Positions 56,706 to 58,369 of a DNA stretch of 64,000 nucleotides are shown piece by piece (positions within the stretch are counted from its first letter, which is position 1; each line of letters starts with the position of its first letter). The stretch comes from an uncultured Chloroflexia bacterium (lineage in GTDB: Bacteria > Chloroflexota > Limnocylindria > QHBO01). The notes beneath the pieces were generated by a model. That model ran no database searches and was not told the origin of the DNA. It saw nothing but the letters and a program-made list of their open reading frames with translations. The stretch is from NCBI GenBank assembly GCA_963750025.1, contig CAVVPF010000022.1, forward strand, positions 94,778 to 158,777, read 5' to 3'. The position numbers and the translations under genes were made by a program.

Positions 56706-56781
56706 GTGCCCGTAGCTCAGTGGATAGAGCGTCAGGTTGCGGACCTGAAGGTCGGAGGTTCGAGTCCTCTCGGGCACGCCA
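56706..56781 (+). tRNA. tRNA-Arg(GCG)
   Basis: GTGCCCG/CGGGCAC acceptor; TCAGG-TTGCGGA-CCTGA, anticodon GCG at 56739-56741; CCA. Confidence 0.93.
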
Positions 56782-56860
56782 AACTTGCCGGCTGCCCGGT
56801 CCCCGGGTACCACGCCACAGCCGCGCCCGGCGTTGCCTTCGACCGCGACGGCCAGTCGCG

Positions 56861-57637
56861 CTAGTCGAATTTCACTGACGCGAGGATCGTGTCGGCCTTC
56901 CTCGTGAGAGAGTCGAAGGTCGTGCCGTCGAGCGAGTCGACGAATATCGCGACCACCCCTTCGGCTGAGGTCAGCAGGTAGAGCCGCTGGACCTCGATGC
57001 CCGCTGATCCCCAGTCCCACTGCCAGGGTGGCTTTGCTGATGGGTCGCTATCCTTGAAGAACGTCACGCACGCCTGTACCGGGCAGTCCGCCGGCCCCGC
57101 CGCCGCTGTGGCCGCGACCTTGATGTCCATGGTGAGGCCGCTCAGGCCGCCAATGGTCGCCGGTGCCGCCGCTGTGACGTCGAGCAGCGGATTGCCGGCC
57201 AGCCACGTCGCGAGCTCATCCACGGTTGGGCCGACGCTCGCCACGTACCCTCCCAGGGCATCGGTGGCACGTGGATCGCGAAAGAAGGCGATGGCATCTC
57301 CGGGATCCGCGATTGGCAAAAGTTGGAACACGAAACCCGCGTCCGCGATGTTCTGCCATCCGGCCTCCGGCACGCTGAACGTGATCTGCGGGTTGAAGGC
57401 GGTCGTGGTGTAGACCTTGTTGGCCTCGAGCAGCCCGAGGCAGATGTGACCCTGCTCGCAGGTTCCGTCGGTCGGCAGGTCGGTTGGCCGAGGCACGGCC
57501 AGCGGCAGCTGCGTTTGGGTCGGCTCCGCTGTTGAAACCAGTGACGAGCTTGGCACTGCCCTTGAACTTGGCCCGTTCGCCCCGGCCTGGCAGGCAGCCA
57601 GGAGAAGGCCGAGGCCCGCGATGACGATCCTGGGCAT
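56861..57637 (-). CDS. Hypothetical lipoprotein
   Basis: MPRIVIAGLGLLLAAC lipobox, Ser/Pro-rich linker, beta-rich domain. Confidence 0.7.
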   Translation of the reverse strand: MPRIVIAGLGLLLAACQAGANGPSSRAVPSSSLVSTAEPTQTQLPLAVPRPTDLPTDGTCEQGHICLGLLEANKVYTTTAFNPQITFSVPEAGWQNIADAGFVFQLLPIADPGDAIAFFRDPRATDALGGYVASVGPTVDELATWLAGNPLLDVTAAAPATIGGLSGLTMDIKVAATAAAGPADCPVQACVTFFKDSDPSAKPPWQWDWGSAGIEVQRLYLLTSAEGVVAIFVDSLDGTTFDSLTRKADTILASVKFD

Positions 57638-57925
57638 TGCACCCGATTGCGGCACGTCTTAGCTCCTCCGACCGGTATGGCCGATGAACTCGCTCCAGCC
57701 GCGGAGTGTAGCGTTCATCACCGGTCTGTTCGGATCCCGCCGGGAGCGAATCAGATCCAGCACCAGCCGACCGGCGGGGACGAGCTCGCGTCGCACAGCG
57801 ATCCGCCAGGCCTCGCGCAGGGGGCGCGGGCGTACGTCGGGCCTATCCTGGCGACGACCGCCAAGTGCGCCTCTGCTAGACTCGGCCACGGGCCCCCAGC
57901 ATCGGCGCGGCACGCTCGAGGAAGC

Positions 57926-58369
57926 ATGAACTACGAGCTCTACATGGCCGAGGCGATCGCCGAGGCGAAGCGCGGCGCAGAAGAGGGCGAGGCACCGGTC
58001 GGTGCCGTGGCCGTCCTCGATGACGCCATGATTGCCCGCGACCACGACCGCATCCTCCTCCAGCGCGACCCGATCGCCCATGCCGTCCTGCTGGTGGTGC
58101 AGGCCGCCGCCCGCAAGCTGGGCACGCGGCGGCTGTCCGACGTAACCATTTTTGCCACCCACGAGCCCTGTGCCATGTGCGTGGGGGCCCTGCTGGCCGG
58201 ACGCGTCAAGACCCTTGTCTTCGCCCTCTCCGACGAAGAGCAGGGCGCCGCGGGAGGTGCCGTGCAGCTTGCCCGGGGCGAGGGCCTTGGCCACCAGGTG
58301 GCGGTCATCTCCGGGGTACGGGAGGCTGAGGCGCGCCGCCTCGTGAGCGCTGCACCCGCGAGCGTCTGA
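57926..58369 (+). CDS. tadA: TadA-family deaminase homolog lacking the catalytic Glu (HAV)
   Basis: YMAEAIAEA..GEAPVGAV, DPIAHAV, THEPCAMC, GAAGG; syntenic position next to SRP RNA and dnaX. Confidence 0.85.
   Translation: MNYELYMAEAIAEAKRGAEEGEAPVGAVAVLDDAMIARDHDRILLQRDPIAHAVLLVVQAAARKLGTRRLSDVTIFATHEPCAMCVGALLAGRVKTLVFALSDEEQGAAGGAVQLARGEGLGHQVAVISGVREAEARRLVSAAPASV

Follow-up and report, generated by a model that had tools for sequence, protein, structure and literature searches.

The window analysed here is a 64,000-nucleotide stretch of an uncultured Chloroflexota bacterium of the class Limnocylindria (GenBank assembly GCA_963750025.1, contig CAVVPF010000022.1, positions 94,778 to 158,777), and it carries a tRNA gene cluster in which two components of bacterial arginine decoding have both changed. 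The tRNA-Arg gene next to tRNA-Ser(GCT) has the anticodon GCG in place of the ACG found in this slot in other bacteria, and the nearby homolog of tadA, the gene for tRNA adenosine deaminase, encodes a protein of 147 residues (P0001) in which the catalytic glutamate of the His-Ala-Glu (HAE) motif is replaced by valine (HAV). To our knowledge, inosine at position 34 of tRNA-Arg (I34), together with TadA, is regarded as near-universal in bacteria. The HAV/GCG state is real, clade-wide and old: arginine decoding has switched to unedited tRNAs, the TadA homolog has lost catalytic and pocket residues and is conserved, and no partner deaminase accompanies it in the genomes searched. We consider it likely that P0001 and its relatives are selected, non-catalytic pseudo-deaminases that derive from tadA and are kept for a role other than catalysis.

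The HAV protein and its conservation

P0001 reads His52-Ala53-Val54 at 58079-58087 (codons CAT GCC GTC), with an intact PCAMC motif and all three zinc ligands (His52, Cys82 and Cys85) retained, and HMMER alignments to solved TadAs place Val54 under the catalytic glutamate and Asp41 under the conserved asparagine. The translated open reading frame (ORF) and these alignments bear out what a sequence-only reading of the window had proposed for the motif, the zinc site and the replaced asparagine. Pfam recognizes the deaminase family (MafB19-deam, 92.1 bits with a cut-off of 27; dCMP_cyt_deam_1, 67.6 bits). Against the NCBIfam TadA equivalog model NF008113, P0001 scores 115.6 bits and five congeners 108-126 bits, under the cut-off of 150, which is a weak test in that only 6 of 12 control genomes with a match reach it.

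The extent of the change can be seen by setting the HAV proteins beside their HAE counterparts. The best 150 matches among 1.84 billion representative sequences included 111 HAE and 33 HAV proteins, many of the latter being fragments or mis-called frames that run into the tRNA-Ser gene. The 111 HAE representatives were compared on one profile (positions 1-135) with 73 distinct full-length HAV proteins, left after the removal of duplicates and fragments, and a position was counted as changed if its conservation reached 75% in the HAE set and it was altered in the HAV clade. The catalytic glutamate, which by the way the set was defined occurs in 111 of 111 HAE representatives, is Val54 in 73 of 73. 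The pocket residue Asn41 (99% asparagine in the HAE set) has become aspartate in 47, arginine in 12, glutamine in 9 and glutamate in 2 of the 73; Tyr76 has become phenylalanine, Asn122 proline, and Lys105 a mixture of glutamate (22), arginine (22), aspartate (8), valine (6) and others; Val23, Ala57 and Val77 are likewise changed. On the other hand, His52, Ala53, Val54, Glu80, Pro81, Cys82, Met84 and Cys85 are invariant in all 73, and so are the EPC.MC motif and the GAAG loop across the HAV proteins. The C-terminus is altered as well: the basic FFxxRR-like tail, whose loss had been noticed from the letters alone, is kept in the HAE relatives of the same class and gone from the HAV proteins, which end just past one short helix (144-148 residues long in the window's own family, here called f1). 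The available part of PMC3239186 names the marks of the TadA/Tad2 clade: strand 2 carries an asparagine, strand 4 is followed by a basic residue, and the C-terminus has two helices and a conserved phenylalanine in them; the HAV clade has Asn41 and Lys105 replaced and one C-terminal helix only.

This combination of loss and retention extends across the lineage. Of 41 relatives searched, 33 gave a match and 30 loci were aligned, in which the motif, read directly, is HAV in 25 (own genus g1 in family f1, and family f3) and HAE in five (four from f2, one from f5). Scanning species-representative genomes added 58 Limnocylindria loci, HAV in 58 of 58, and 22 loci of other phyla, all with glutamate. 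Identity to P0001 falls as low as 48% among the HAV proteins, with the reading frame open and the length near-constant throughout, and Val54 is encoded by GTC in 37, GTG in 34 and GTT in two of the set. In three soil metagenome runs, which come from different studies, contigs also span 58079-58087 with the valine codon unchanged, differing from the window at 58081 (His) and 58084 (Ala), both synonymously. The argument that HAV could not be a miscall is thus upheld both by the invariance of valine in the 73 relatives and by these separate metagenomes.

The ratio of nonsynonymous to synonymous substitution rates (dN/dS) points in the same direction. Rough NG86 estimates over 2628 pairs of HAV genes gave medians by dS bin of 0.06 (dS 0.05-0.3), 0.155, 0.256 and 0.259, and the corresponding values for a control set of 69 distinct HAE tadA genes from metagenome contigs were 0.10, 0.26, 0.26 and 0.23. 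By this measure purifying selection acts on the HAV gene as strongly as on working tadA, and the expectation that the pseudo-deaminase had been kept intact, rather than left to drift at a dN/dS near 1, is confirmed. Indeed, each outcome that the sequence-only reading had named in advance as able to overturn it, from a miscalled codon to such a dN/dS, has come out in favour of the finding.

Arginine decoding, gene order and distribution

The tRNA-Arg gene that follows tRNA-Ser(GCT) is called by ARAGORN and folds as a cloverleaf with the anticodon loop UUGCGGA, in agreement with the GCG anticodon first read at 56739-56741. The genome to which the window belongs (2.73 Mb in 37 contigs, 68.7% G+C) yields 51 ARAGORN tRNA calls with five arginine anticodons (GCG, TCG, CCG, TCT and CCT), and tRNA-Arg(ACG) was not found among the 51 in this assembly, which is 84.5% complete. 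The same five anticodons recur in congener G005 (98% complete, 7 contigs), in which no A34 tRNA was found among 47 tRNAs detected with Rfam RF00005, all 47 being re-found by ARAGORN. The sole A34 call in the window's own genome, a 'tRNA-Ala(AGC)' at C13:43806-43895, is 90 nt long, has mismatches in its stems and an unusual additional arm, and was rejected as a false positive. The earlier proposal that this lineage had abandoned inosine-34 decoding therefore holds in both genomes, which carry no A34 tRNA and have tRNA-Arg(GCG), (TCG) and (CCG).

Codon use shows what this set has to accomplish. Across 1107 long ORFs, arginine is encoded by CGC (47%), CGG (28%), CGA (10%), CGT (8%), AGG (5.5%) and AGA (1.2%), so that tRNA-Arg(GCG), which reads CGC and CGU, serves the majority (55%) of arginine codons. 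Since CGA codons are in use, a UCG tRNA is needed, and the tRNA-Arg(TCG) that had been predicted to lie elsewhere in the genome is present on contig C3. The GCG tRNA itself is 99-100% identical in 15 congeners. It has 84% identity to the tRNA-Arg(CCG) of its own genome and at most 81% to any of 52 syntenic ACG tRNAs; an origin by change of A34 to G34 in situ is unsupported by these identities. Relatives bearing ACG already have a UCG tRNA, and the loss of inosine would therefore have been tolerable.

The gene neighbourhood also bears on descent. A metagenome scan with a relative from the HAE clade as query gave 80 loci, all HAE. A tRNA-Arg gene lies upstream of tadA in 50 of them, at a median gap of 17 nt, the anticodon is ACG in 52 of the 52 tRNA-Arg genes read in HAE loci, and most of those 50 loci have the complete order Ser(TGA)-Ser(GCT)-Arg(ACG)-tadA-Ser(CGA)-Ser(GGA). 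The window keeps that order, with GCG replacing ACG, HAV replacing HAE and 1144 nt inserted. Its features in this region are as follows.

54677..54764, plus strand: tRNA-Ser(TGA) (ARAGORN), first member of the cluster, separated from the next tRNA gene by tdk and aroE
55033-55617, minus strand: thymidine kinase gene tdk (Pfam TK), between tRNA-Ser(TGA) and tRNA-Ser(GCT)
55626-56501, minus strand: shikimate dehydrogenase gene aroE (Pfam), between the same two tRNA genes
56600..56691, plus strand: tRNA-Ser(GCT) (ARAGORN), conserved upstream neighbour of tRNA-Arg, both in relatives and in HAE loci
56706..56781, plus strand: tRNA-Arg(GCG) (ARAGORN), anticodon at 56739-56741, in the slot of tRNA-Arg(ACG) in other bacteria
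56861..57655, minus strand: ORF of 264 residues, its N-terminus lipoprotein-like, without a Pfam family, in the insert between tRNA-Arg and the TadA homolog
57926..58369, plus strand: TadA-derived pseudo-deaminase P0001 (147 residues), His52-Ala53-Val54 at 58079-58087
58443..58529, plus strand: tRNA-Ser(CGA) (ARAGORN), 73 nt past the stop codon of the TadA homolog, its conserved downstream neighbour
58565..58652, plus strand: tRNA-Ser(GGA) (ARAGORN), last member of the cluster
58895-60616: dnaX, after tRNA-Ser(GGA)

The downstream side of the locus is preserved: 57 of the 58 HAV loci have tRNA-Ser(CGA) after the gene, at a median distance of 62 nt from where the alignment stops, and 48 of the 80 HAE loci have it too. 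Upstream, 35 of the 58 HAV loci have enough flank to include the tRNA, and in these the gap from tRNA-Arg to the HAV gene is 2064-5835 nt (median 3681). The genes in the insert vary between HAV loci and lie mostly on the opposite strand; when the insert ORFs of the 35 loci were clustered, no conserved same-strand operon partner was found, the commonest family (22 loci) being on the opposite strand. Judged from this shared order, the HAV gene is the positional ortholog and direct descendant of bacterial tadA. The 17-nt gap in HAE loci, set against the long gaps in HAV loci, suggests that tadA once abutted the gene of its substrate and that this coupling was broken in the HAV clade.

Some further features of the cluster may be mentioned here. 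In HAE loci of other bacteria tRNA-Ser(TGA) adjoins tRNA-Ser(GCT) upstream, whereas in the window tdk and aroE interrupt the pair; the window also has a second tRNA-Ser(TGA) gene at 46462-46549, 8 kb from the copy at 54677-54764, and congener G005 has one. Exact pieces of tRNA-Arg(GCG) occur at other sites, namely a partial copy (positions 28-62) at C18:154901-154935 of the same genome, outside the window, and in congener G008 two pieces (positions 32-76 and 53-76) at C5:11086-11130 and 12909-12932, a few kb from the tRNA. These partial copies look like scars of elements integrated at tRNA-Arg(GCG), and such integration might account for the variable DNA that separates tRNA-Arg from the TadA homolog.

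The distribution of the gene was surveyed across the class in genomes at least 85% complete with P0001 as a protein query, the HAV or HAE state being taken from the score. A match was found in 77 of 79 genomes of f1 (76 at E <=1e-30) and in 113 of 119 of f3 (108 at E <=1e-30); 33 of 38 genomes of f2 matched, all with E from 1e-27 to 4e-20, and the single f5 genome matched as well. Family f4, with genomes of about 1.1 Mb, had no match in 13 genomes, and Pfam PF14437 had none in the four searched (91-93% complete). A 13-nt GCG anticodon arm was present in 76 of 79 genomes of f1, 113 of 119 of f3, 10 of 13 of f4, 4 of 38 of f2 and none of the one f5 genome, a noisy survey to be read as a family-level tally only, in that many genomes have two to four matches and the reversed control also matches some. 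Read directly, the tRNA is Arg(GCG) at 25 of 30 loci, including f3, f4 and one f2 genome. The co-occurrence survey that the sequence-only reading had called for thus pairs HAV with GCG in f1 and f3, and ACG with HAE in five f2 genomes (G025, G029, G037, G035 and G039); the queries used found neither ACG nor GCG in genomes G031 and G033.

The f2 genome that has GCG is a case apart. G027 (97% complete) carries tRNA-Arg(GCG) and tRNA-Arg(TCG) in tandem (L164:1501-1670, contig C26), and no TadA match was found in it apart from a 35-bit Pfam match within a 658-residue frame. Its GCG tRNA has 91% identity to that of the window and only 70% to tRNA-Arg(ACG) from its congener G039, which hints that it was gained by transfer or gene replacement and not by point mutation.

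In a quick maximum-likelihood tree, 29 HAV rows of f1 and f3 (17 and 12 of the 73 sequences), together with representatives P0008 and P0009, form one clade of 31 rows with SH-aLRT support of 99, apart from all HAE rows; the stem leading to it measures 0.83 changes per site. The HAE rows were 22 of the 69 metagenome sequences taken at random, 10 of the 111 representatives picked by hand and five from Limnocylindria, and four odd representatives were added. The topology fits a single origin of HAV followed by renewed constraint. Two representatives without the glutamate stand elsewhere. P0020 has HAV together with the canonical basic tail and is nested among HAE proteins, and its 80 metagenome relatives are all HAE; it was not found among 401 Chloroflexota, in which only f1 proteins of less than 50% identity matched. 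As an independent HAV lineage it is unsupported, and a rare variant or an error may lie behind it. P0128, with His-Pro-Ile, is a TadA-like protein lacking the glutamate outside the Limnocylindria clade.

The role of the retained protein

The AlphaFold (AF2) model of P0001 (predicted local distance difference test score, pLDDT, 90; predicted template modelling score, pTM, 0.87) has TadA as all of its top Foldseek matches, with template modelling (TM) scores of 0.87-0.91, B. subtilis TadA being at 0.90 with 44% identity. After the last strand the model has a single helix (133-142), and the chain stops 5-10 residues later. Modelled as a homodimer, the protein scores 0.66, the best of three controls scoring 0.00, with contacts agreeing to at least 94% between runs, a partner pLDDT of at least 89 and an interface made of residues 46-52, 82-93 and 105-122. 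In a benchmark the mark used was reached by 20 of 30 solved pairs and 1 of 23 solved single chains; solved TadA dimers exist, and the pass may reflect only memory of them or likeness to them. On the strength of the model, the HAV protein is probably a TadA-like homodimer.

These observations can be assembled into a sequence of events. In the common ancestor of the two Limnocylindria families f1 and f3, the tRNA-Arg(ACG)/ICG system would have been swapped for unedited GCG, UCG and CCG tRNAs, which would have taken away the only tRNA substrate of TadA, while the tadA ortholog remained at its old locus. The retained protein has lost the proton-shuttle glutamate (replaced by the invariant valine), the residues of the adenine and anticodon pocket and the basic C-terminal helix, while its fold, its dimer surface and all three zinc ligands were kept, and since then purifying selection has held it as firmly as it holds working tadA genes. 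By analogy with the eukaryotic subunit ADAT3 and with mutants of the glutamate, there is a strong case that the HAV protein is catalytically inactive, and selection equal to that on working tadA suggests that such a dead protein is kept for a non-catalytic role.

What this role might be can be narrowed to some degree. We infer a homodimer that holds zinc and owes its value to binding something. With far less assurance than we have in a non-catalytic role as such, we lean towards a ligand that is an RNA of the surrounding tRNA cluster, or some other partner, RNA or protein, in preference to the canonical anticodon loop. The fuller proposition, that this is a stand-alone pseudo-deaminase of one origin, arisen after inosine decoding ended, convergent on ADAT3, and selected across two families and hundreds of species for a new non-catalytic job in RNA biology or translation, we hold to have slightly less than an even chance of being right in all its parts.

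Several observations weigh against a conserved non-catalytic role or the evidence for it. All the genomes compared are metagenome-assembled genomes (MAGs), and the window's own is incomplete at 84.5%. The class survey inferred the HAV or HAE state from the score, with the motif itself not read, and NG86 dN/dS is rough at 69% G+C. Family f4 has lost the gene altogether, and the role of the protein is therefore dispensable in streamlined cells. The HAV clade is net acidic (-2 to -10) and the canonical RNA-contact residues are gone, which tells against the lean towards RNA binding; the comparison of net charge and isoelectric point shows a modest shift only and decides nothing. Among the RNA data, run X15 covered only parts of the tRNA-Ser genes, and 0.07-0.09 of the sequence words were present in the RNA runs, both neutral on expression. 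Lastly, the congener bin G002 (70% complete, 3% contaminated) has a 4.7-kb contig (C49, 1-4692, L254) with Ser(GCT)-Arg(ACG)-HAE tadA-Ser(CGA)-Ser(GGA), in addition to its own HAV gene and GCG tRNA. Because the whole cluster is duplicated in the bin, this contig is probably a binning contaminant from another organism.

Among the other explanations, a sequencing error, mis-assembly or contamination in the MAG is hardly credible, with HAV read directly in 83 loci and separate metagenome contigs spanning the site. A functionless relic whose decay is still to come would make sense of a protein with its substrate gone, of the complete loss of the gene in the sister family f4, and of two HAV loci from long-read MAGs (L122 and L130) that look broken at the N-terminus, aligning in frame only from residue 20 or 45, be it through possible frameshifts or as real pseudogenes. 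Such a relic would not, however, be expected in nearly every f1 and f3 genome of the class survey, with its frame open and its length near-constant at identities down to about 50%, a dN/dS equal to that of working tadA and synonymous variation beneath an invariant valine, and we regard it as quite improbable. That the protein is still an enzyme, with its zinc site turned to another substrate or served by another proton shuttle, has rather more to commend it: the invariant zinc ligands, EPC.MC motif and GAAG loop imply that the pocket region is still constrained, and a long stem followed by conservation is the expected look of a change of function. Against this, the glutamate, described in the available part of PMC8216470 as the proton shuttle, is 100% conserved in the 111 HAE representatives; an invariant hydrophobic valine offers no chemistry; and the pocket asparagine position is variable in the 73 HAV proteins, with no replacement acid fixed there. 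A surviving enzymatic activity is accordingly judged unlikely, though it is the alternative we take most seriously.

The sequence-only reading had offered a further option, that of the inactive half of a bacterial heterodimer like ADAT2/ADAT3, with another deaminase-fold protein as the partner. The ADAT3-like valine and truncated last helix, together with a dimer surface that seems kept in the model, would suit it, and the genome does have a further deaminase-fold gene with an intact HGE motif: PF14437 and PF00383 each have two matches, P0001 and a gene at C22:17246-17728, outside the window, with HGE and PCPMC motifs. The latter, however, finds its closest match in the guanine deaminase of B. 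subtilis (1wkq, E 1.4e-36), and guanine-deaminase-like genes of this kind are patchy, being found in 11 of 79 genomes of f1, 10 of 119 of f3 and none of 10 other genomes of the window's own genus. A second TadA of the HAE type was not found in the genome with the two Pfam models, nor in five congeners (90-99% complete) with NF008113, which have the HAV gene each and the guanine-deaminase-like gene in one; nor was an A34 tRNA for such a pair to edit found in the window's genome or in G005. This option did not survive the search for a partner, and we rate it as very improbable. A selected pseudo-deaminase with a non-catalytic role is thus the reading that we prefer.

Comparison with known systems

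The closest relatives of the HAV protein are the bacterial TadAs themselves (7cph, 2b3j and 1z3a), which it resembles in fold, zinc ligands, gene position and predicted homodimer. It differs from them in being without the glutamate, the pocket asparagine, the lysine, the second asparagine, the second C-terminal helix and the basic tail. Its genomes, furthermore, are without a detected ACG substrate, and its gene no longer adjoins tRNA-Arg.

On the side of decoding, archaea read the arginine CGN box with G34, U34 and C34 tRNAs and have no TadA. The three-tRNA set of the window's genome is alike, whereas its GCG tRNA is bacterial (84% identity to its own CCG tRNA) and sits in a bacterial gene cluster. 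Another parallel comes from Mollicutes, for which the available part of Yokobori et al. 2013 (PMC3711424) describes a solution with GCG and UCG tRNA-Arg and tadA lost; in both cases tRNA-Arg(GCG) and (UCG) are present and ACG is absent. The Mollicutes, however, lose tadA and tRNA-Arg(CCG) in tiny, AT-rich parasite genomes, whereas the HAV lineage is free-living, with genomes of 2-4 Mb at 69% G+C, keeps CCG, and keeps tadA as a conserved dead protein; only family f4, at about 1.1 Mb, resembles the Mollicute end state. Elsewhere, the loss of inosine has been noted without explanation in Spirochaetes and one proteobacterial class in the available part of Diwan and Agashe 2018 (PMC6063277), and tadA is dispensable in B. 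subtilis according to that of Soma et al. 2023 (PMC10454642). In the literature searched, which leaves aside the supplementary tables of PMC3711424 and PMC6063277, neither a conserved bacterial TadA without the glutamate nor tRNA-Arg(GCG) decoding in Limnocylindria or Chloroflexota was found described.

Thus, where the documented exception in print is the loss of tadA in tiny Mollicutes genomes (PMC3711424, as far as its available part goes), a widespread, free-living and G+C-rich lineage of soil and freshwater has made the same decoding switch without genome reduction. One class moreover holds three states, namely ACG with an active TadA, GCG with a dead TadA and GCG with no TadA, and with these side by side it becomes testable in what order the events of a change of decoding took place. 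There is also a practical side to this, as annotation pipelines will label HAV genes as tRNA adenosine deaminase and so predict I34 where there is probably none.

There is, finally, the comparison with eukaryotic ADAT3/Tad3, the inactive subunit of the ADAT2/3 wobble deaminase. In the available part of PMC8216470, the inactivation of mouse ADAT3 is attributed to the change of glutamate to valine, to a last helix that is shortened and caps the zinc with its end, and to the loss of the anticodon pockets, and the HAV protein has the same valine for the catalytic glutamate, a zinc site that is kept, a shortened last helix and lost anticodon pockets. A conserved counterpart of the zinc-capping C-terminal acid, that is, a conserved aspartate or glutamate at the C-terminus, was not found in the HAV alignment (the tail has a pLDDT of 66 in the model). 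The two would have separate origins, P0001 having a phmmer E-value of 2e-11 to ADAT3 and of 3e-32 to bacterial TadA; and P0001 consists of the deaminase domain only (147 residues), without the N-terminal tRNA-binding domain, and has no active partner that could be found. The HAV protein can therefore be seen as a natural bacterial counterpart of ADAT3, with the same change of glutamate to valine, shortened helix and loss of the pocket, but partnerless, and one is led to ask what use a dead TadA dimer could be.

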